This document shows, in pieces, positions 6,222 through 54,314 of a stretch of 64,000 nt of DNA (position 1 is its first letter; each line of letters starts with the position of its first letter). Both the position numbers and the translations under genes were made by a program. The stretch lies in the NCBI GenBank assembly GCA_046330135.1, contig JAXLTI010000004.1, forward strand, positions 1,174,394 to 1,238,393, written 5' to 3'. The notes under the pieces were generated by a model that was not told the origin of the DNA, searched no databases, and worked only from the letters and a program-made list of their open reading frames with translations. Origin of the DNA: a bacterium (GTDB lineage: Bacteria; ARS69).

Positions 6222-7739
6222 GTGGAGTCGGAAACCCGGAGCGGCAACGTGCGACGCGGATCAACTCTCTTCGGCTTCGGCCTACTCGGCTTCGTCGTCG
6301 TGGCCGCCGGCTCGCTATCGGTCTCCCTTGCCCAGACCCCTTGTACTCCCAAGGTGGTCGTACGCTTGCCCGCGTTCGTCGACTACGGCTGTCCCGTGTC
6401 AGCACCCGTGAGGGTCTCGTCCATATGCGACCTGGGAGGCTTTCAGTTCGACGTGGTGTTCGACGAAACGCTTCTCGAGTTCGACCGGGTCGAGCTCGGC
6501 CCCTTCCTGGGAAGTACCGGGCGCAGCGTGATGCAGCTCGGGCCTGTCGTTCAGGTCGGGAGAGTGCGTTACGGGGCGCTGTCGTTCGGAACCCAGGCCG
6601 GATCGACCGGATCCGGCGACCTTGCGACCTTGACCTTCATCAATCGGAATCCAGGGCCCACGCGTCGCGCCTCGACGGTCACGCTCGAAGCGCTTGAGCT
6701 GGTGGATACGGAAGGCCGAGCGATGGAGACCGAGAGCGCACCTGGAAGCGTGAGCCTTCTTCATCACATCTTCGGGGACTACGACGAGGACTGCGAGGTC
6801 ACGGTCGGCGATGCCATGCAGCTGGCCACCCGGTGGGGGGCACGTAGCGGAGACGAGCGCTATGATCCCACCTGTGACGTGGACCTTGCCTCTCCGGGAG
6901 AGTACTGCGCGTCCGTCCCGGACGGCGACATCGACATCGTGGACGTCCAACTGGTCGCGTCGCGGTGGTCAGCCACCTGCGCGACCAGCACATCGGTGAC
7001 GTCGAGTGCCGTGATCACCGCGCCGGTGTCGTTCTCCTTCGATCCTCCCTCCGTGGCGGGGAGCGAGGGAGGCCTCACCTCGGTGGCGATCGTCGCATCA
7101 GGTGCGGAGGATCTCGGTGCGTTCGAAGGTCGCTTGGTGTTCGACCCCGAGGTCGTGGAGATCACAGCGGTCCGTGGAGGTGAATTTCTGACTCAAGGAG
7201 GCAACGGCACGGTCTCCTTGAGCGATGCGCCGACGCAAGGTGCGGAGGCCGTCGGGGCCTTTAGCTACGGGCCGTCTGGAGGCGCCTCGGGTGCCGGCAC
7301 GGTTGCGTACGTGGACCTACGACTCAGAACCTGTGGCCGCTCGGAGTTGGTACTCGAGGATGTCCGCGTGGTGTCGAAAGACGGAAGAGAAGAGACGCTC
7401 GGCGCAACGTCGACCGGCGAGGTGGCGTGCGCCGCATCCGGAGTCGGACCGGGGGCAGCGGCTGCGCGCCACGGAATCTGGGCCACGCCAAGCCCATTCC
7501 GCGAGGGGACGACGATCTTCCTTGAGGTTCCGGCCGCGTCGAAGCTCCGCGTGGACGTCTTCGATGTATCAGGACGTCGCGTGCGTGGCCTCGTCGACTC
7601 GGAATTGCAGGCGGGAGTGCACCGTTGGCAGTGGAATGGCTGCGACGATGCGGGACGGCCTGTTCCGACCGGGATCTACTTCGTCAGAGGTCTCGACCCG
7701 ACCGCGTGCCGTACGCTTAAGGTCATCCGCACTCGGTGA
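6222..7739 (+). CDS. secreted cohesin/dockerin-like protein with C-terminal FlgD-Ig/T9SS-type domain (paralogue of the 4230..6140 C-terminal two-thirds)
   Basis: Signal peptide. CDLGGFQFDVVFDETLLEF cohesin-like block, DYDEDCEVTVGDAMQLATRW dockerin-like block, and C-terminus SPFREGTTIFLEV...VFDVSGRRVRGL...WNGCDDAGRPVPTGIYFVRG. Collinear with the upstream gene. Confidence 0.6.
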   Translation: MESETRSGNVRRGSTLFGFGLLGFVVVAAGSLSVSLAQTPCTPKVVVRLPAFVDYGCPVSAPVRVSSICDLGGFQFDVVFDETLLEFDRVELGPFLGSTGRSVMQLGPVVQVGRVRYGALSFGTQAGSTGSGDLATLTFINRNPGPTRRASTVTLEALELVDTEGRAMETESAPGSVSLLHHIFGDYDEDCEVTVGDAMQLATRWGARSGDERYDPTCDVDLASPGEYCASVPDGDIDIVDVQLVASRWSATCATSTSVTSSAVITAPVSFSFDPPSVAGSEGGLTSVAIVASGAEDLGAFEGRLVFDPEVVEITAVRGGEFLTQGGNGTVSLSDAPTQGAEAVGAFSYGPSGGASGAGTVAYVDLRLRTCGRSELVLEDVRVVSKDGREETLGATSTGEVACAASGVGPGAAAARHGIWATPSPFREGTTIFLEVPAASKLRVDVFDVSGRRVRGLVDSELQAGVHRWQWNGCDDAGRPVPTGIYFVRGLDPTACRTLKVIRTR

Positions 7740-7834
7740 GTTGAACTGGGGACAGGTTGCGAGCGCTCACGCACCTGCACTGGGGTTGCGTCGGGGGAGA
7801 AGGGCGACCACCGCGAAGGCGGTCCGCGCCATCT

Positions 7835-8647
7835 CTAGCCCCCCGAAGCCTCCAGGAAGTCCAGCACGACGTCGTTGAACCGCGCCGGGTCTTCCATGTT
7901 CGGGAGGTGCCCCACTCCCGGCATCACCAGGCGGCGGGCGCCGGGGACGTCGCGCTCGATGGTCTCGGCCACCCGCTGGAAGTCGGCGGCGTCTCGCTCG
8001 CCCACCACTGCGAGGGTGGGCACCTGGATCTCGGAAAGCCGCAGGATCGCCGGCGGTACGATGGGCTGTCCCCGATCGCGGTTCAGCCAGTGCCACCCCG
8101 AGTAGCCTTCGATCATGGCGCGCAGGCGCGGCGCCAGCTCCTTCCGCGCGAGCGCATTCGCCAGGAGCGGTGACGCGAGCCACTCGCGCCTCGCGGCATC
8201 GAGTCCCTCCTTCTTCGCGGTCTTCGACACGGCCCCGAGGGAATCCGTGAAGTCCTTCGACCACGCGAATCCCGCGAGGAAGGTGTCCACGAGCACGAGG
8301 GCCCGTGCGCGCCCCGGGTTCGAGGTGGCGAAGCCGATCACCGCGCCGCCGCCCATCGACAGCCCCACGAGCGCCGGCGAATCGATCTGCAGATGATCGA
8401 GCAGCGCCGCGAGGTCGTCCGCGTGGCGATACGGAACGTCGGCGGCGGGGGAGCGGCCGAAGCCGCGCAGGTCGTAGCGAACGACCGTGTAGCGCGGCGC
8501 AAAGGCGTCGACCTGGTCGTCCCACATCCTCCGGTCGAGCGAGAAGCCGTGGAGGAACACGACCGGCGGACCCTCGCCGGCCATCTCCCACGCGAGCGTG
8601 GTTCCGGCGACGGGCACGAAGCCGGTGCGAGGTTCGCGCGTCATCAC
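7835..8647 (-). CDS. alpha/beta hydrolase
   Basis: VVFLHGFSLD and the GLSMGG nucleophile elbow; 270 aa. Confidence 0.75.
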   Translation of the reverse strand: MMTREPRTGFVPVAGTTLAWEMAGEGPPVVFLHGFSLDRRMWDDQVDAFAPRYTVVRYDLRGFGRSPAADVPYRHADDLAALLDHLQIDSPALVGLSMGGGAVIGFATSNPGRARALVLVDTFLAGFAWSKDFTDSLGAVSKTAKKEGLDAARREWLASPLLANALARKELAPRLRAMIEGYSGWHWLNRDRGQPIVPPAILRLSEIQVPTLAVVGERDAADFQRVAETIERDVPGARRLVMPGVGHLPNMEDPARFNDVVLDFLEASGG

Positions 8648-43311: not shown

Positions 43312-43883
43312 CCCGAGCTAGCGCCCGGCCTGGGCACGCCCGGGCGCCTCGCGATCAGCCAGCCGGCGAGCACGATGGCCGCGAGGAGCGCCACGAGGGG
43401 CAGGAGGATCGCGAGCACGCTGGTGACGACCGCGCCGGCCAGCTCCACCGTCGCGAGGAGGAAGTTCGCCGCGCCGCCCGTCGTCAACGTCGAGGCGGCG
43501 CGCGCCGCGGCGGTGGTGCCGTGCAGGATCCCGGCGGCGCCGCCGCCCCCGATCACCGCGAGCGACCACTTGAGAAGCGGCGGCAGGTCCGTGACCACCG
43601 AAGCGGTGGCGAGAATGCCCGCCGCGATGGCCACGGGCGGCCCGAGCATGTCCAGGAGGTTGTCGAGCCAGGGCACGTAGTACGCCGTGACCTCCACGAT
43701 CGTGGCCACCGCGAAGGCCGCGAGCGCCGGCGTCGACGCGATCCAAGCGAATCCCGGCGCCAGCGGAAGGTGCCCGGCCCTCGCCGCGACGCTCATCACG
43801 AGGAACGGGACGAAGATCCGCAGCCCGACCGCGGCGCTCAGCGCGATCCCGATCGCGACGGCGAGCAACGTATCGAAGGTCAT
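43308..43883 (-). CDS. DUF4126-family membrane protein
   Basis: Start MTFDTLLAVAIGIAL. Four or five TM helices. ATGA overlap with the S9 peptidase stop. Confidence 0.55.
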   Translation of the reverse strand: MTFDTLLAVAIGIALSAAVGLRIFVPFLVMSVAARAGHLPLAPGFAWIASTPALAAFAVATIVEVTAYYVPWLDNLLDMLGPPVAIAAGILATASVVTDLPPLLKWSLAVIGGGGAAGILHGTTAAARAASTLTTGGAANFLLATVELAGAVVTSVLAILLPLVALLAAIVLAGWLIARRPGVPRPGASSG

Positions 43884-46633
43884 CGCCCGGTCTTCGTTTC
43901 GCGGCTCGGCTTGCCTGCGGCGCGGTCGGGGTACAGGTCGTTCCACCACTCGGGCTGGCCCTTCAACCAGCGATCGAACCAGGCCACGATGGACCGCGAC
44001 CACACGAGGCGCTTCGCGTGGTCGGTGATGAGGTGATCGAGGCCTTCGACCTGCACGTACTCCACCGGCGCGCCGAGCAGCTTCAGCGCCGTGTAGAACG
44101 CATCGCTCTCGCCGGTGGGCACGTTCGTGTCCGACGTCCCGTGCGTGAGGAGAATCGGCGTGCGCACGCTGTCGGCATGGAAGAGCGGGCTCTTGTCCAC
44201 GTAGACGTCGCGGCGATTCCACGGGAAGGACTCCGCGGTGGCGACGCTGCTGTACGAGTAGCCCCAGTATCCGTCGCCCCAGTAGTACTCGAGCGACGAG
44301 ATCCCCGCGTGCGACACCGCGGCGGCGAAGCGGTTCGTCACCGTCACGAGGCGCATCGTGAGGAACCCTCCGTAGGAGGCGCCGATGCAGCCGACGCGCT
44401 TCGTGTCGACGTACGGATGCGTCTCGACGAAGCGATCCGTGCCTTCGATCACTTCCTTCGCCGTTTTCTCGCCCCAGTCGTTCACGTGCGCGGCCGAGAA
44501 GCGCTGCCCCCAGCCGATCGCGCCCGACGGCTGCAGCACGTAGACCACGTAGCCCTCGGCCGCCCACCACTCCAAGGGATAGCGCCCGCCGAAGTCGCGC
44601 TCCACTGGCGCCGTGCCGCCGTAGTAGTACACGATGCACGGGTACTTCGCGCTCGGGTCGAAGTCCGGCGGGAGATAGAAGCGCCCGTCGATGGTTACGC
44701 CGCTCGAGGCCGTGAAGCTCCACGGCTCCACCTTTCCGCGGCGCACGCGGGCGAAGCGATGCGCGGCCGGCCGGTCGAGCACGCGGTGCGCGCCGGTGCG
44801 CAGGTCGAGCGACACGAGCGAGGGCGGGCTCCACGGGGAGGTGGCGGTGAGCACGAGGACGGGCGCTTGCCGAGCGAGGCTCATCGACCGCACGACGTCC
44901 TCGCCCACCTCCAGGCGCGTGAACGTCTTCGCGACGGGATCGTAGCGATAGAGGCGCTGGCAGTCGCCCTCCGCGACGCGCAGATAGATCATCCCGTCCG
45001 CGCGGCTCCACTCCGCGTCGAGAACCGCGGGGTCGAAGTCGCGCGTGATGCACTCCGCGGCGTTCGACGACGGATCCCACACGTACAGCTCCTGGTCGAA
45101 CTCGTTCGGAATGACGCTGTCCGGCAGCGAGCGTCCGACCTTGCCGAGCTCCGAGGACCCGCCGCGCAGCAGGATCCGCGTGCCGTCCGGGGAGTACCCG
45201 GCGTCGTTCAGCCACGGCTCGTCGCGGAGCTTCTTCGCCGCGAAGGTGGCGAGATCCAGCTCCCACAGCTCCGTCCGCTCGAACGGGCGCTCCGTGAGAT
45301 CCTCGACGGTGCGCGTGAAGAGGAGCCTCTTCCCGTCCGCGGAGAAGGACACCGCGCCGGTCGTGATCGGCCCCGCCGTCAGCCGGCGCACCGTACGGCC
45401 GGGCAGAGCGAGGAGGCTCAGGTGCGACTTCTCCCGGTAGTTCGCCTGCCGGTCGGCGAGCCCTTCGAGGCGCTTCAGCCCGCGCGAGTCCGGGTCCGGC
45501 GAGACCGAGGTGGAAAAGACGAGCGCCGTCCCGTCCGGCGACCAGGCGTAGCTCTCCAGGTTCTCGACGCGCTCCAGCAACGGCCCGGTGCGTCCCGTGT
45601 CCAGCTCCGCGACCCAGATCGTGCCGAGCGACTTCTTCGTCTTCGCGTCGTCGTCGCCGCCCGCGCTCTCGGTCGTGAGGTAGCTGATCGCGCGCCCGTC
45701 GGGGCGCCACGCGAGCTGCCGGCCCGTGAATCCGCCGCGCCAGGTGCTGACGAGATCGCCGTTCTCGGTCGAGCGGATTTCCGCCCACGTCTCGCTGCGG
45801 TCGGAGCCGGCGACCACGCGCTCGAGGCTCGCGACCACGCGCTTGCCGTCCGGGGACGTGGCGATCGACGTGACGTGCGGCAGGTCGACGACGTCGAGGA
45901 TGTCGACGTCGCGCTCGGGGTCGAGCGAGAAGGAGAGCTGCGCGGGGAGCGAGTCCGGCGGCAAGCGGAGCGACGCGCCGGCCATCCAGTTCGCGCCCCG
46001 CGAGGGATCCAGCACCGTCTCGACGACGAGCAAGTGCTTCCCGCGCGTCAGCTTCACCTTGCCCTGGACTTCCGCGCGCGCGGAGTCGAGCCCGCCGGAG
46101 GCCACCGGCTCGTCGTCGAGCCAGGCGCGCCGGGGGTGCGAGCCGAGCACCACGAGATCGCACGCGGTGAAGCGCGCGACCGAGACGTAGGCGGCGAGGC
46201 GCGCGACCTGAGGCGGGCTCTCGGACACGCCAGGCTCAGCTCGAGGCGGACGGGCCGCGCCGCGCGGAAGGGACACTTCGCCGTCTTTCGCGTCCGTCGC
46301 GCGCCAGGGCAGCACGGCGCCGCCGGGCCAGGCCACGCTCGAGTCGGCGGCCGGCGGATCCGCGTCGCGCGCGAAGCGATCGTCCTTCAGGAGGTCCTCG
46401 AGCCCGTACGCGAAGGGGGTGTCGCCGTGGAAGACCGGCAGCACGGCCGGCGCCGGGCCGAGGACGAGCCAGCGGGAAACGGGCGAAGGGGCGGGGCGCT
46501 TGGCCGGCGACGTCTTCGTCGATCCGGCAGGAGAGGCCTTCGCGACGGTGGCCGACGCCGGCCAAGCCCACGTCAGCGCGAGGAGGAGCGTGCCGGCCAG
46601 GACCCCATCGAAACCGCCGCGGCGCAAGCGCAT
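43880..46633 (-). CDS. S9-family serine peptidase with N-terminal beta-propeller (prolyl oligopeptidase/acylaminoacyl peptidase-like), secreted
   Basis: Signal peptide and WD40-like propeller repeats (YAWSPDGT, AGYSPDGT). Catalytic triad region CIGASYGGFLT (GxSxGG), with Asp and His blocks (THGTSDTNV, GLDHLI). Confidence 0.8.
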   Translation of the reverse strand: MRLRRGGFDGVLAGTLLLALTWAWPASATVAKASPAGSTKTSPAKRPAPSPVSRWLVLGPAPAVLPVFHGDTPFAYGLEDLLKDDRFARDADPPAADSSVAWPGGAVLPWRATDAKDGEVSLPRGAARPPRAEPGVSESPPQVARLAAYVSVARFTACDLVVLGSHPRRAWLDDEPVASGGLDSARAEVQGKVKLTRGKHLLVVETVLDPSRGANWMAGASLRLPPDSLPAQLSFSLDPERDVDILDVVDLPHVTSIATSPDGKRVVASLERVVAGSDRSETWAEIRSTENGDLVSTWRGGFTGRQLAWRPDGRAISYLTTESAGGDDDAKTKKSLGTIWVAELDTGRTGPLLERVENLESYAWSPDGTALVFSTSVSPDPDSRGLKRLEGLADRQANYREKSHLSLLALPGRTVRRLTAGPITTGAVSFSADGKRLLFTRTVEDLTERPFERTELWELDLATFAAKKLRDEPWLNDAGYSPDGTRILLRGGSSELGKVGRSLPDSVIPNEFDQELYVWDPSSNAAECITRDFDPAVLDAEWSRADGMIYLRVAEGDCQRLYRYDPVAKTFTRLEVGEDVVRSMSLARQAPVLVLTATSPWSPPSLVSLDLRTGAHRVLDRPAAHRFARVRRGKVEPWSFTASSGVTIDGRFYLPPDFDPSAKYPCIVYYYGGTAPVERDFGGRYPLEWWAAEGYVVYVLQPSGAIGWGQRFSAAHVNDWGEKTAKEVIEGTDRFVETHPYVDTKRVGCIGASYGGFLTMRLVTVTNRFAAAVSHAGISSLEYYWGDGYWGYSYSSVATAESFPWNRRDVYVDKSPLFHADSVRTPILLTHGTSDTNVPTGESDAFYTALKLLGAPVEYVQVEGLDHLITDHAKRLVWSRSIVAWFDRWLKGQPEWWNDLYPDRAAGKPSRETKTGR

Positions 46634-46637
46634 CCCG

Positions 46638-47414
46638 CTACTCGCCGCGGAACTCGGCCGGGCGCTTGTCGAGGAAGGCGGTCATCCCTTCCTTCACGTC
46701 GGCCGTGGAGTTCAACACCGTCTGCGCCACGATCTCGAGCTGCATTCCCCAATCGGCCGGGACGTTCGAGGAGGCCTGCAGCACCATCTTCGCGAGACGC
46801 AGCGCCACGGGCGCGCGCTTCGCGATGCGCTCGGCCAGCTCCCGGGCGGCGGCCGCCAGCTCCGCCGGCGCCACGACCCGGCTCACGAGCCCGATGCGCA
46901 GCGCGCTCTCCGCGTCGTGGATCGTGCCGGCGAGGATCATGTCCTTCGCGAGGCCGAGCCCCACGATCCGCGGCAAGCGCTGCGTGCCTCCGGCGCCGGG
47001 AAGGATGCCGAGCCCCGTCTCCGGGAGCCCGAGCTTCGCGTTGGCCGACGCGATGCGGAGGTCGCACGCGAGCGCCAGCTCGAGCCCGCCGCCGAGCGCC
47101 CAGCCGTTGATCGCGGCGATCGTGGGGAAGGGGAGGCTCTCGAGACGCGCGAAGAGGCGGTTGTTCGCGGCCGCGAGGACGTCGGCGTTCGAGCGCGCCA
47201 GGAGCGTTCGCACGTCGGCGCCGGCGACGAAGACCTGATCGCCCGCGCCGGTCACTATCAGCACGCGGGTGACCGCGCCGCGCTCGATCTCGTCGAAGGC
47301 CGCGTGCAGCTCGCGCACCGTGTCCGCGTCGAGGGCGTTGCGCGCGGCGGGTCGATCGATCGTGACGAGGGCGATGGCGCCGTCCGTCGCCAGGCGAATC
47401 CTCTCGAACGACAT
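46638..47414 (-). CDS. enoyl-CoA hydratase/isomerase (crotonase) family protein
   Basis: ALVTIDRPAARNAL, VTGAGDQVFVAGADV, and INGWALGGGLELALACD oxyanion-hole/catalytic Glu region. Confidence 0.8.
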   Translation of the reverse strand: MSFERIRLATDGAIALVTIDRPAARNALDADTVRELHAAFDEIERGAVTRVLIVTGAGDQVFVAGADVRTLLARSNADVLAAANNRLFARLESLPFPTIAAINGWALGGGLELALACDLRIASANAKLGLPETGLGILPGAGGTQRLPRIVGLGLAKDMILAGTIHDAESALRIGLVSRVVAPAELAAAARELAERIAKRAPVALRLAKMVLQASSNVPADWGMQLEIVAQTVLNSTADVKEGMTAFLDKRPAEFRGE

Positions 47415-47476
47415 GGATCCTCCTTCGTCGCGCTCGGGTGTCGCGGCGGAGCGGATCGTAGCGGAATCGAGAGGGA

Positions 47477-48190
47477 GTGCCCACCGCAGGCGACGCGATC
47501 GTCAACGCGGGGATGCGCCGGCGGGCGAGGCGGCTGCGTTCGCCTCGAAGGGAGCGCCGGGAGGGCGTCCTCGCGGCCGGAGGCGCCCGGGGCCGGCGGA
47601 ATGCGCCTTGCAAGGGGGAACGCGCACGCGCGGGAAGGAGGTGCGTCGCCACGCATCCACGACGGCTCGCGGCGTTCGTTCTCGCGGGGGTGGCGCTCGG
47701 CGTGTCCGGGATGGCGGAGCTCGCGACGGCGCGGTGGCCGGTCCCCGCGCTGGTCGCGTGGGCACGGGATGCCCGCTTCCTGGGAGAGGGCGGCGTGCGG
47801 CAGCGGCGCGCCACGGACTGCGGCCCGGCCGCGCTCACGGAGGCGCTCCGATGTCTCGGGATGGACGTGCCGTACCCCGACCCGGAAGGGGGCATCGCGC
47901 TCGGTCCGCGGGGCTGCGGGCTGGATGACCTGGAGCGGGCGGCCGCCCGTCGCGGAGCGGTCGCGCGGATGCGTCGCCTCGATCCGCCGGAGCTGGACGG
48001 CGTGCGCGCGCCGGCGGTGCTGCACCTCCGCGAGGGTCACTTCGTGGTCTTCGAGGGGAGAGGCCCTTCCGGCGGCGTCCTGATCGTCGACCCCTCGCTG
48101 GGGCGCCTGGAGCAGTCGTCGAGAAACCTCGCCCGGCATTGGTCCGGGTGGGTCCTGGAGTTGAGTCTCCCCGAGAGGAGGAACCCATGA
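47477..48190 (+). CDS. standalone C39-like papain-fold cysteine peptidase domain protein (membrane-anchored)
   Basis: C39 signature RRATDCGPAALTEALRCLG (catalytic Cys) and EGHFVVFEG (His), preceded by a hydrophobic anchor LAAFVLAGVALGVSG. There is no ABC transporter domain. Its stop overlaps the ATG of the downstream small ORF (ATGA). Start position is uncertain. Confidence 0.5.
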   Translation: MPTAGDAIVNAGMRRRARRLRSPRRERREGVLAAGGARGRRNAPCKGERARAGRRCVATHPRRLAAFVLAGVALGVSGMAELATARWPVPALVAWARDARFLGEGGVRQRRATDCGPAALTEALRCLGMDVPYPDPEGGIALGPRGCGLDDLERAAARRGAVARMRRLDPPELDGVRAPAVLHLREGHFVVFEGRGPSGGVLIVDPSLGRLEQSSRNLARHWSGWVLELSLPERRNP

Positions 48191-48411
48191 AGGCGCGTTG
48201 GAAGGCGGCGGTCGTCGTGACCGCTCTTGGCATCCTCAGCTCGAGCGGAGGGGCGTCGGGGATCTCCTCCCCGGGGCGAGAGGTCCCCAGCGGCGGACGG
48301 AATCTGCAGGGATGCCTCCTGGGAATCCAAGCCTGCTCACTGGGCCGGAACACCGGGGACGGGCTCCTGGAGATTGCCGGAGGAGTCCTCGCTTATTTCA
48401 GCTGCCGCTGA
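48187..48411 (+). CDS. small secreted Cys-containing peptide (74 aa), possible precursor peptide
   Basis: ATG 48187 with GAGAGGAGGAA RBS. Sequence MKARWKAAVVVTALGILSSSGGASGISSPGREVPSGGRNLQGCLLGIQACSLGRNTGDGLLEIAGGVLAYFSCR has three Cys and several Gly-Gly sites. Translationally coupled to the C39-like gene. Confidence 0.35.
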   Translation: MKARWKAAVVVTALGILSSSGGASGISSPGREVPSGGRNLQGCLLGIQACSLGRNTGDGLLEIAGGVLAYFSCR

Positions 48412-48493
48412 CCGCCGATGACGAGGGTGGTAGGATTCAGGTGGTTCCGGGGAGGTGGCCGGGAATCCCGTCCCCCGGGTGAAGGAGGGCGTC

Positions 48494-49300
48494 GTGAGCT
48501 CCTATCGCGAAGCTCCGCAGCCGTCCCGTGTGCTCGGCGAGACCAACTCGGGAGCGCGCAACCTGCCGCGCTTCCTCTGCTCGTTGCTCGAGCCGGGCCC
48601 GGTTCTCGTCCTCGGTGCGTCGGAGGCGGCGCTCGAAGCCGCCAACCACCATGACGTCACGGTTCTCGATTGGAACCACGCGCGTCTGGCCGCGCTCGGA
48701 GAGATGGCCCGCGATCGCGGCAACGACGTGAGGCTCCTCTGCCGGAACCCGGTTCACGAGGATCTCGGTCTGGCGCCGCGCAGCTACCGGAACGTCGTCT
48801 GTCTCGACGTTCTCGAGCGTCTTCCCAACGACGTCGCGGTCCTGGAGAAGCTGCAGCGCGTGCTGGAGGCCGGCGGGCGTCTCGTCGTCCGCGTGCCGGC
48901 GCGGCCGTGGTCCCGGAACGGCGTCGCAGCGGACTTCGGCGCGCGTCGCTACGACTCCGAGAGCCTGCGAAGCGCGCTCGAGGAAGCGGCGTTCCGCACG
49001 ATCCGGGTGCGGCACTGGAATCTCGTGGGCGTGCCGTCGGCCCTGCTCGAAGGGAGGCGTAGGCAGCCCGACGACGCGGAGGGGCGGCGTGTCTCGCGCC
49101 GCCGGCCGTGGTGGGATTCCACGGTGGACCTCTGGTACCGGGAGGTCGAGCGACGCGTGAGCTTCCCGGTGGGAGTGAGTCTCGTCGCGGTGGCCACGCC
49201 GTTCCTGGAGAGGGCCCGCGTGGAGCGGCCGGACTTCACCCGCGCGCTCAGGCGGCGCGGGCACCGCGAGGCGTACGAGCCGATGGCCGCGGCTCGCTGA
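48494..49300 (+). CDS. class I SAM-dependent methyltransferase
   Basis: GTG 48494 with GAAGGAGGG RBS. VLVLGASEAALEAA, VVCLDVLERL and LEAGGRLVV motifs. Confidence 0.6.
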   Translation: MSSYREAPQPSRVLGETNSGARNLPRFLCSLLEPGPVLVLGASEAALEAANHHDVTVLDWNHARLAALGEMARDRGNDVRLLCRNPVHEDLGLAPRSYRNVVCLDVLERLPNDVAVLEKLQRVLEAGGRLVVRVPARPWSRNGVAADFGARRYDSESLRSALEEAAFRTIRVRHWNLVGVPSALLEGRRRQPDDAEGRRVSRRRPWWDSTVDLWYREVERRVSFPVGVSLVAVATPFLERARVERPDFTRALRRRGHREAYEPMAAAR

Positions 49301-49358
49301 GGCTCGCCGCCCCGCCGAGATCCCCCGGGAGATTCGGCTCGAGGACCGGCCCGTCGCG

Positions 49359-49742
49359 CTACGTGCGGCGGGAGTGGCTCTGCACGCGCCGCATGACGAG
49401 GGAGCGGTGCTTCGCGTCGGCGAACTCCTCGCCGCGCCCCTTGCCGCGCAGCTCGTCCACGAGCTTGTCCGCGGCCGCCACGTCCACGTCCGCCACCTCG
49501 GACGCCGCCTCGGTCAGCACGGTCACCTTGTCGGCGGCGACCTGGACGAAGCCGCCCTCCACGAAGAGCTCGCGCGTCTTGCCGCCGCTCGTGACCCGCA
49601 GCACGCCGACTCCCAGCTTCGCGAGGAGCCGCGCATGTCCGGGGAGGATGCCGATCTCGCCGTCGTGCGCGGGCACGACCACCCGCTCGGCGTCCTCGTC
49701 GAGGATCGCCCGCTCCGGCGTGACGACGGTGCATTTCAGCAT
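49359..49742 (-). CDS. atpC: F1Fo ATP synthase epsilon subunit
   Basis: MLKCTVVTPERAILDEDAERVVVPAHDGEIGILPGHARLLAKL is a canonical epsilon N-terminal beta-sandwich. Confidence 0.85.
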   Translation of the reverse strand: MLKCTVVTPERAILDEDAERVVVPAHDGEIGILPGHARLLAKLGVGVLRVTSGGKTRELFVEGGFVQVAADKVTVLTEAASEVADVDVAAADKLVDELRGKGRGEEFADAKHRSLVMRRVQSHSRRT

Positions 49743-49824
49743 GGTCAGCGAGCCCTCCCGCCCCGAACGGCCGTCGCCCGGCGCGCGGCCCGTTCGCCGG
49801 GCGGCACCGGATGCGAAGGCGACA

Positions 49825-52222
<2,398 letters not shown>

Positions 52223-52240
52223 GTCGAGGTCTCCTGGGTC

Positions 52241-54314
<2,074 letters not shown>

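Follow-up and report, generated by a model that had tools for sequence, protein, structure and literature searches.

C39 peptidases are the textbook cytoplasmic domains of bacteriocin exporters (PCAT). One described family member departs from this arrangement: FapD of the Pseudomonas Fap amyloid system is a stand-alone C39 peptidase that is exported by Sec, is located in the periplasm and requires its catalytic Cys, and whose substrate is still unclear and is not an adjacent small peptide (PMC5557850). Open-access papers and preprints on stand-alone or periplasmic C39 proteins, or on C39 together with Yip1 or thioredoxin, yielded only FapD and the standard PCAT systems. Furthermore, double-glycine and Sec leaders are treated as alternatives in the literature and in mining tools (PMC12648112; PMC10885120). 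Here, we describe a locus in a 64,000-nucleotide stretch of bacterial DNA (contig JAXLTI010000004.1, positions 1,174,394 to 1,238,393; called the window, with positions counted from its first letter), in which the gene of a stand-alone C39 cysteine peptidase (47513..48190, + strand) overlaps that of a 74-aa precursor peptide (48187..48411, + strand). On balance, these two genes appear to form a translationally coupled protease-substrate pair working outside the cytoplasm. An original prediction, made from the DNA letters, had combined them with a downstream methyltransferase gene into a possible module for a peptide that is made by ribosomes and modified after translation (RiPP).

The open frame of the peptidase (47477-48190, + strand) is 237 aa long. 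Its residues 107-229 match Pfam Peptidase_C39 (PF03412; E 3.2e-14, 53.4 bits vs a cut-off of 22) over profile positions 5-128 of 133. Since the stop falls 8 residues past this match and the next gene is the 74-aa open reading frame (ORF), the protein has no ATP-binding cassette (ABC) transporter part, as had been predicted; the NHLM_micro_ABC1 model likewise matches over its first 126 positions only. With no fused transmembrane or nucleotide-binding domain, the protein falls outside the PCAT/AMS exporters. The catalytic residues expected in TDCGPAAL and HFVVFEG are in place. Cys115 (codon 47819..47821, + strand) lies in an invariant QxxxxDCGPAAL motif and aligns with the Cys that serves as nucleophile in LahT150 and ComA, and His188 (codon 48038..48040, + strand) lies in an invariant column within GHFVV (GHFVVFEG). 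Q109, C115, H188 and D205, which are invariant across 10 aligned sequences, are the counterparts of the catalytic triad and oxyanion Gln known from double-glycine peptidases. The nearest solved structures by profile match were LahT150 (6mpz, E 9e-18), followed by the ComA peptidase domain and PCAT1. The residues thus point to an intact active site of the double-glycine processing type, and a grouping with non-processing C39-like domains, which had been named as a possible refutation, was not found. Homologues of this C39 are rare, only 9 having been detected in a set of 5.8 billion proteins, all of them 159-205 aa long. FapD shares with the window C39 the stand-alone form, the Sec signal and the periplasmic topology (the latter two predicted in the window). 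The two are nonetheless not orthologues: the score against NCBIfam C39_FapD (NF058616) was 18.1 bits vs a cut-off of 330, the neighbours are enoyl-CoA hydratase (ECH), methyltransferase and ATP synthase genes with no fap genes nearby, and a coupled candidate substrate is present, unlike in the case of FapD.

Upstream of the C39 domain, an Arg-rich stretch is followed by a hydrophobic segment (LAAFVLAGVALGVSGMA; 47666..47716, + strand), predicted to be a signal anchor or signal peptide. Its mean hydropathy is 2.1 over 17 aa; six K/R fall within the preceding 15 aa and one follows it. A 17-residue hydrophobic segment, conserved in frame, precedes the C39 domain in each of the 11 relatives examined, in agreement with the membrane-anchored protein of the original prediction. 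In 11 of the 12 scored C39 proteins, 1-6 K/R were counted in the 15 residues before this segment vs 0-2 after; in the exception, P0008, the called start lies inside the segment and no K/R precedes it. By the positive-inside rule, this bias suggests that the C39 domain should face outside the cytoplasm. Three start codons were considered, namely ATG 47513, GTG 47477 and the ATG 47711 of NCBI. GTG 47477 sits within a conserved non-coding block that is independent of reading frame, and ATG 47513 would give an Arg-rich tail, the codon-position G+C being flat across 47513-47626. The NCBI model (MFN8178357.1, 159 aa) starts at 47711 (Met79) and omits the conserved hydrophobic segment, which the C39 gene call of locus L054 also cuts off; the deposited model is therefore probably truncated at the N-terminus. 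No canonical start codon was found near a sequence resembling a ribosome-binding site (RBS), GGAAGGAGG, at 47633-47641 of the window C39 gene. This could reflect an assembly indel, a start of an unusual kind or an N-terminal tail that is long and Arg-rich.

The TGA stop of the C39 gene (48188-48190) overlaps the ATG of the peptide gene (48187-48189) as ATGA, as originally described. Is the small ORF, listed by NCBI as hypothetical protein U0167_10525, a gene at all? The local G+C around the C39, peptide and methyltransferase genes is 70%, high-GC DNA yields many long chance ORFs, and the G+C at third codon positions of the small ORF (0.78) is below that of the neighbouring genes. A chance frame is nevertheless scarcely credible here, and as far as sequence evidence reaches it has been refuted. 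Whereas a single-sequence search with the window peptide returned its own NCBI entry and one relative at 82% identity, nine relatives were found in a word-indexed profile search, and an exhaustive HMMER search of 1.84 billion representative proteins gave 13 matches, of which 11 were genuine (36-82 aa). The matches P0023 and P0028, long repeat proteins whose scores were sums of many weak repeats, were dropped. One relative, P0021, is a 36-aa fragment consisting of the core; the others are 64-91 aa long. The resulting family has about 16 relatives at 30-82% identity, over which frame, length, start overlap and a C-terminal C-R-stop are kept. Purifying selection was detected in the peptide frame only: compared with L055, the locus of the 82% relative, the ratio of nonsynonymous to synonymous substitution rates was 0.22 for the peptide core and 0.8 and 2.6 for the other two frames, with 0.14 for the C39 C-terminus. 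The small ORF is also called as a gene by several independent pipelines. The 4-nt overlap recurs in L051, L053, L054, L055 and the P0002 contig, and in L002 a 12-nt gap stands in its place. A lack of conservation in syntenic loci, which had been named as grounds for rejection, was accordingly not observed, the peptide being kept next to C39 in relatives. From sequence comparison, the 74-aa ORF is a real, conserved gene that is translationally coupled to C39. Its distribution is narrow. No Pfam or NCBIfam family covers the window peptide, tblastn against all fetched loci gave matches in the close clade only, and a six-frame hmmsearch with a 17-sequence profile detected neither a copy in loci L001 and L004 nor a paralogue in the rest of the 64-kb window.

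Full-length members of the family share one plan: a K/R-containing n-region, a hydrophobic h-region, a variable linker of 10-35 residues, G-[G/A/Q] and a core with the pattern x-[N/D]-[L/W/M]-x-x-C...G...LE-x-x-G...C-[R/P/L]-stop. The window peptide accordingly has a basic, hydrophobic N-terminus, in which a Sec-type signal sequence was predicted (MKARWKAAVVVTALGILSSSGGASG; 48187..48261, + strand; three K/R in the n-region, mean hydropathy of the h-region 2.35). By the same heuristic, 15 of the 16 peptides have 1-3 K/R and, after them, a 12-aa segment with a mean hydropathy of 1.5-3.2, and are thus scored as Sec-dependent secreted peptides; the remaining one, the shortest (P0027, 64 aa), has the hydrophobic segment with no K/R before it. 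AxA-like sites are frequent in the family. As basic and hydrophobic N-termini are present on both products, the protease should encounter the peptide outside the cytoplasm.

The window peptide carries Cys at 43, 49 and 73 and GG at 21-22, 36-37 and 65-66. The three Cys and several GG of the original prediction are therefore all present, although in the relatives only C43, C73 and GG 36-37 are conserved, and C49 is not. G36-G37 (48292..48297, + strand) lies where the variable linker gives way to the conserved core. G36 is invariant in a nine-sequence alignment (A3) and present in 16 of the 17 sequences of a larger one, the remaining sequence, P0013, being offset by an alignment shift and having its own A-G-G one residue downstream. 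Position 37 is G, A or Q in the larger alignment, and [VA]-P-x often precedes the site. By analogy with double-glycine peptidases, the C39 would cut the precursor after G36-G37, to give a predicted mature core of 37 aa (RNLQGCLLGIQACSLGRNTGDGLLEIAGGVLAYFSCR; 48298..48408, + strand). C43, G46, G53, L61, E62, G65, C73 and R74 are invariant in A3 and largely conserved in the 17-sequence alignment. AlphaFold2, run on the nine-sequence alignment, predicted a helix at 3-20, a low-confidence or disordered linker at 21-39 and a hairpin of helices 40-56 and 59-73 with a pLDDT of about 87, placing G36-G37 in the flexible stretch directly before the hairpin. Since C43 (48313-48315) and C73 (48403-48405) both lie at the open end of the modelled hairpin, a stapling disulfide between them seems likely. 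In some pediocin-like bacteriocins a disulfide ties down a C-terminal hairpin, which the Cys pair of the peptide recalls. A Foldseek search of the precursor model against the PDB gave nothing better than E 3, the matches being generic helical hairpins.

In the mechanism that we infer, including its topology, cleavage site, disulfide and biological role, the C39 and the 74-aa precursor would be made from one transcript and each would pass through Sec by its own N-terminal signal. The C39 domain would then be found at the inner membrane on its periplasmic side, either anchored there or released by signal peptidase. In the precursor, a signal peptide covering about residues 1-25 would be followed by a variable and disordered linker, by G36-G37 and by the 37-aa core, and cleavage by C39 after G36-G37 would free the core, which would fold as a two-helix hairpin with its open end stapled by the C43-C73 disulfide. 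The PCAT/AMS proteins (LahT, ComA, PCAT1, CvaB) resemble this system in having a homologous C39 with the same catalytic Gln/Cys/His/Asp and a substrate gene adjoining the protease gene, and specificity for Gly-Gly/Ala before a small core would be expected here as well. In contrast, the window C39 has no transmembrane or ATPase domain and, with a signal or anchor at its own N-terminus, is predicted to lie outside the cytoplasm, and in its presumed substrate the double-glycine site is preceded by a Sec-type signal. Double-glycine chemistry would thus be used with inverted topology: Sec export would come first and cleavage outside second, uncoupled from each other, unlike the cytoplasmic cleavage by PCAT. 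The window precursor likewise differs from double-glycine and from Sec-dependent class II bacteriocins in having a Sec-type signal and a putative double-glycine site in tandem.

Such a combination is not confined to the window. Scanning genomes with the C39 profile gave 47 loci. Most encode full-length PCAT transporters (710-980 aa), and seven of the 47 encode a stand-alone, anchor-bearing C39; these are L004, a metagenome-assembled genome (MAG), L005, a Candidatus Eiseniibacteriota MAG, L006 from Thermoanaerobaculia, L007 from Aminicenantia, and L008, L009 and L019 from Gemmatimonadota. A metagenome contig, L003, obtained by a separate look-up and encoding a C39 44% identical to that of the window, makes eight. 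Outside the window clade, all five loci with downstream sequence (L003, L006, L007, L008 and L009) show C39 followed by 1-4 ORFs of 87-109 aa. These cassettes (L003:708-6460, L006:5211-10494, L007:1317-3301, L008:1733-5724 and L009:5560-8247), which belong to Acidobacteriota or Gemmatimonadota, are unannotated. In each of the ORFs, a clear signal peptide is combined with a site of double-glycine type (G-G, G-A or G-x-G), and the core, hydrophobic and rich in Gly/Ala, lies between Cys residues. The first ORF of L006 (...ELLSDADLLAVTGTG / LFKDVAC...ICLF) fits the leader consensus loosely, the second (...LSEEDLALVVGG / LGSMGTEEC...AAC) contains an exact LSxxELxxIxGG, and both also have a signal peptide; the site in L007 reads ...MSQIEGA / WSWKC...RGCIPAI. 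An ATGA overlap of C39 stop and peptide start is seen in L008 as well, and the Gemmatimonadota peptides have CxxC near the core start and CxxxC near the core end. The search for short peptides beside C39-only proteins of relatives, suggested with the original prediction, gave such peptides within the clade and, alike in architecture, beyond it. The window pair is a minimal relative of a wider, unannotated class of exported C39 peptidases with tandem Sec plus double-glycine precursors. The Sec-type signal in place of a classic double-glycine leader, first regarded as an oddity, is borne out in the window clade and is instead a defining feature.

The larger cassettes encode additional proteins. 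A TlpA-like thioredoxin-fold protein of periplasmic type adjoins C39 in L003, L006 and L007, and in L009 a thioredoxin-like gene, with sub-threshold Pfam matches, lies downstream of the peptide genes. A polytopic membrane protein of 466-579 aa without a Pfam match is also encoded. The cassettes further code for a Yip1-like protein and an ABC ATPase, L003 and L006 having homologous versions of both. Accessory genes of these kinds (thioredoxin-like, membrane protein, ABC, Yip1) are missing from the window. Nine cassette peptides gave no Pfam or NCBIfam family, one L007 peptide having a sub-threshold match to Bacteriocin_IIc (E 0.08).

The small protein may alternatively be a membrane-tethered partner of C39, that is, an inhibitor, adaptor or regulator, with C39 acting on other envelope proteins. 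Translation as tightly coupled as here suits stoichiometric partners, the window clade lacks the classical leader motif, an active-looking C39 without the peptide in L001 and L004 implies other substrates, and the substrate of FapD is not an adjacent small peptide (PMC5557850). The related cassettes, on the other hand, carry up to three or four paralogous ORFs with diverse cores and one textbook leader, the signature of substrates, and in the window family the conserved G-G/A coincides exactly with the linker/core border and is part of a disordered region. A partner role is thus considered unlikely, and the 74-aa peptide is probably the substrate of C39.

Does the peptide kill competitors, as the product of a classical class II bacteriocin or microcin locus? 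A small unmodified peptide freed by leader removal is common to such systems and to the window, and the C39 is of the bacteriocin-processing type. The larger Acidobacteriota and Gemmatimonadota cassettes do look bacteriocin-like: their hydrophobic, Gly-rich, Cys-bracketed cores with ABC, Yip1-like and thioredoxin-like proteins recall pediocin-type operons, where thioredoxin-like accessory genes also occur (PMC5465099), and the Bacteriocin_IIc match in L007 points the same way. In the window clade, however, the leader consensus is degenerate, no bacteriocin family is matched, the core is only moderately hydrophobic and near neutral, and no immunity gene, exporter or outer-membrane component was found near the locus, either in the window or in the clade. 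The position is that of a core gene rather than of a mobile island. Between the ECH gene (46638-47414, - strand; ECH_1, E 1e-62) and the F1 ATP synthase genes for epsilon, beta, gamma and alpha (49359-53770, - strand), the gap is filled by three + strand genes, for C39, the 74-aa peptide and the methyltransferase. This order, ECH(-) / C39 - peptide - methyltransferase(+) / ATP synthase(-), is kept among close-clade relatives. The locus is single-copy and holds a conserved core-genome position across relatives whose C39 proteins are 46-63% identical to that of the window. A killing function for the window peptide is therefore rather unlikely. Because the locus is single-copy, vertically inherited and at a core-genome position, with no immunity or exporter gene, a former bacteriocin may here have become a signal or an envelope factor; such a domesticated role fits the locus as well as an antimicrobial one.

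The third + strand gene encodes a class I S-adenosylmethionine-dependent methyltransferase-like protein of 268 aa (48494..49300, + strand), with a likely start at GTG 48494, rather than 48455, after the RBS GAAGGAGGG and 82 nt past the small ORF stop. A methyltransferase with an RBS downstream had been predicted, and the length from this start fits that of the orthologues (263-274 aa). Methyltransf_11 is matched with 27.2 bits vs a cut-off of 21.2 from profile position 12, after motif I, which reads VLVLGASE with a degenerate GxGxG; weak PDB matches support the fold. In the RiPP module originally proposed, this enzyme would methylate the peptide, C39 would remove the leader and the three genes would be one biosynthetic unit. 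The three genes are indeed adjacent on the same strand in every close-clade locus, and the methyltransferase is uncharacterised and lineage-restricted, a metagenome scan with its profile having yielded only two loci, too few to map its distribution. Furthermore, a short motif is common to its N-terminus (SGARNLPRFLCSLL) and the peptide (SGGRNLQGCLLGI): methyltransferase residues 15-28 (48536-48577, GETNSGARNLPRFLCSLL), near-invariant in the orthologues, resemble peptide residues 34-47 (48286-48327, PSGGRNLQGCLLGI). This likeness is probably a coincidence, since L056 retains the motif but lacks the peptide.

Several observations set the methyltransferase apart from the pair. An extended -10-like motif, TGGTAGGAT (48428..48436, + strand), is conserved in the window, L055, L002, L051, L053 and L054; in these six loci TGGTA(G/C)GAT lies 14-20 nt past the small ORF stop and reads as an extended -10 (TGnTAnnAT), with a possible -35, CTGACC, 17 nt upstream, which overlaps the small ORF stop codon in the window. 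Equivalent motifs were found upstream of the methyltransferase in L001 (TGATACGAT), L004 (TGCTAGAAT) and L056 (TGATAAGAT), so that TGnTA(G/C/A)(G/A)AT lies 45-85 nt upstream of every methyltransferase orthologue in nine loci, including the window. A generic promoter and terminator scan of 47200-49500 gave no matches, TGGTAGGAT fitting 8 of the 12 consensus positions, which is below the threshold. L001 and L004 keep C39 and methyltransferase while the peptide gene is missing, and in L056 ECH directly adjoins the methyltransferase, both C39 and peptide being missing. In L004, a complete MAG chromosome (OZ244210.1), an opposite-strand sulfatase-like gene (6482-7957, - strand) takes the place of the peptide and parts the methyltransferase from C39. 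The methyltransferase orthologues are 51-70% identical and thus more conserved than C39, and among solved structures the closest are methyltransferases of small molecules, MitM (E 1e-5) for example. Moreover, the enzyme has no signal sequence, while C39 and the peptide look exported, and no methyltransferase was present among the genes examined beside the wider stand-alone C39 cassettes. Its own promoter-like motif, its retention without peptide or C39, its lack of a signal and its absence from the genes examined in those cassettes all argue that it is not part of the module. Judged on these features of the DNA, it is probably a separately transcribed neighbour. A RiPP unit of three genes is hence improbable, and the tailoring-enzyme part of the original prediction was not upheld. 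The methyltransferase is the only candidate for a dedicated core-modifying enzyme, so the locus probably has none of the kind by which RiPP clusters are recognised. No modification of the peptide beyond proteolysis and the probable disulfide is indicated, and for this reason the description as a double-glycine-type secreted peptide fits better than RiPP. For annotation, the results suggest leaving the methyltransferase out of the tailoring enzymes.

Some points weigh against an extracytoplasmic protease-substrate pair. L001 and L004, whose C39 proteins are 46-47% identical to that of the window, keep an intact C39 with no peptide gene within about 6 kb, so C39 may have other or additional substrates. 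The linker in the window clade lacks the hydrophobic -4/-7/-12 pattern of classical leaders: the LSxxELxxIxGG consensus is replaced by a semi-conserved [VA]-P-x-G-G together with the Sec-like signal, and the cleavage site therefore rests on analogy. The likeness to the cassette peptides is architectural, the window peptide having no detectable sequence homology to them. The topology and signal calls for both C39 and peptide come from hydropathy and positive-inside heuristics, and the window C39 gene has no well-placed canonical start near the hydrophobic segment, which the NCBI model leaves out. In addition, a periplasmic peptide would still have to cross the outer membrane, and the pairing of C39 with the peptide is drawn from sequences and models.

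More broadly, though quite tentatively, the exported C39 peptidases of uncultured Eiseniibacteriota-like bacteria, Acidobacteriota and Gemmatimonadota may represent an undescribed route of double-glycine maturation. A propeptide with tandem Sec and double-glycine parts would be cut in the periplasm by an anchored C39, aided in the larger cassettes by a thioredoxin-like protein, and the window hairpin would be a lineage-specific, vertically inherited and possibly domesticated product. If so, these peptides would be the first clear substrates for the periplasmic C39 class. Confirmation would establish a new processing logic, export followed by double-glycine cleavage outside the cytoplasm, and would provide a testable enzyme-substrate pair for periplasmic C39 peptidases and a new family of small peptides in phyla from which hardly any natural products have been characterised. 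As bacteriocin-mining tools take Sec and double-glycine leaders to be mutually exclusive, they would miss or mis-cleave the members of this class.

The surroundings of the locus showed further features. The divergent ECH/C39 intergenic region contains the conserved non-coding block at 47451-47495 (GCGGATCGTAGCGGAATCG ... GGGAGTGCCCACCGCAGGCGAC), which is common to the window, L051, L053 and L054 regardless of reading frame. TACGAT on its - strand is likely the -10 of the ECH gene. Rfam searches and consensus folding of the conserved blocks, this one included, gave no family and no convincing RNA structure. Between a DUF4126 gene and the ECH gene lies the gene of a 917-aa secreted protein of the S9 prolyl-oligopeptidase family with PD40 beta-propeller repeats (43880-46633, - strand); as the syntenic contig L054 is without it, the gene appears to be a lineage-specific insertion into the conserved gene order. 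Finally, among the full-length PCAT genes of Deinococcales, Ser/Gly/Asn-rich, Cys-containing translations (SSSGGCGGNSSSGNSSSGN...GGGC) were observed about 140-215 nt upstream of the C39 match (L014:5440-5508, L016:1831-1899, L017:852-929 and L018:5785-5862), and these stretches could be putative precursor cores of an unusual, low-complexity double-glycine type.

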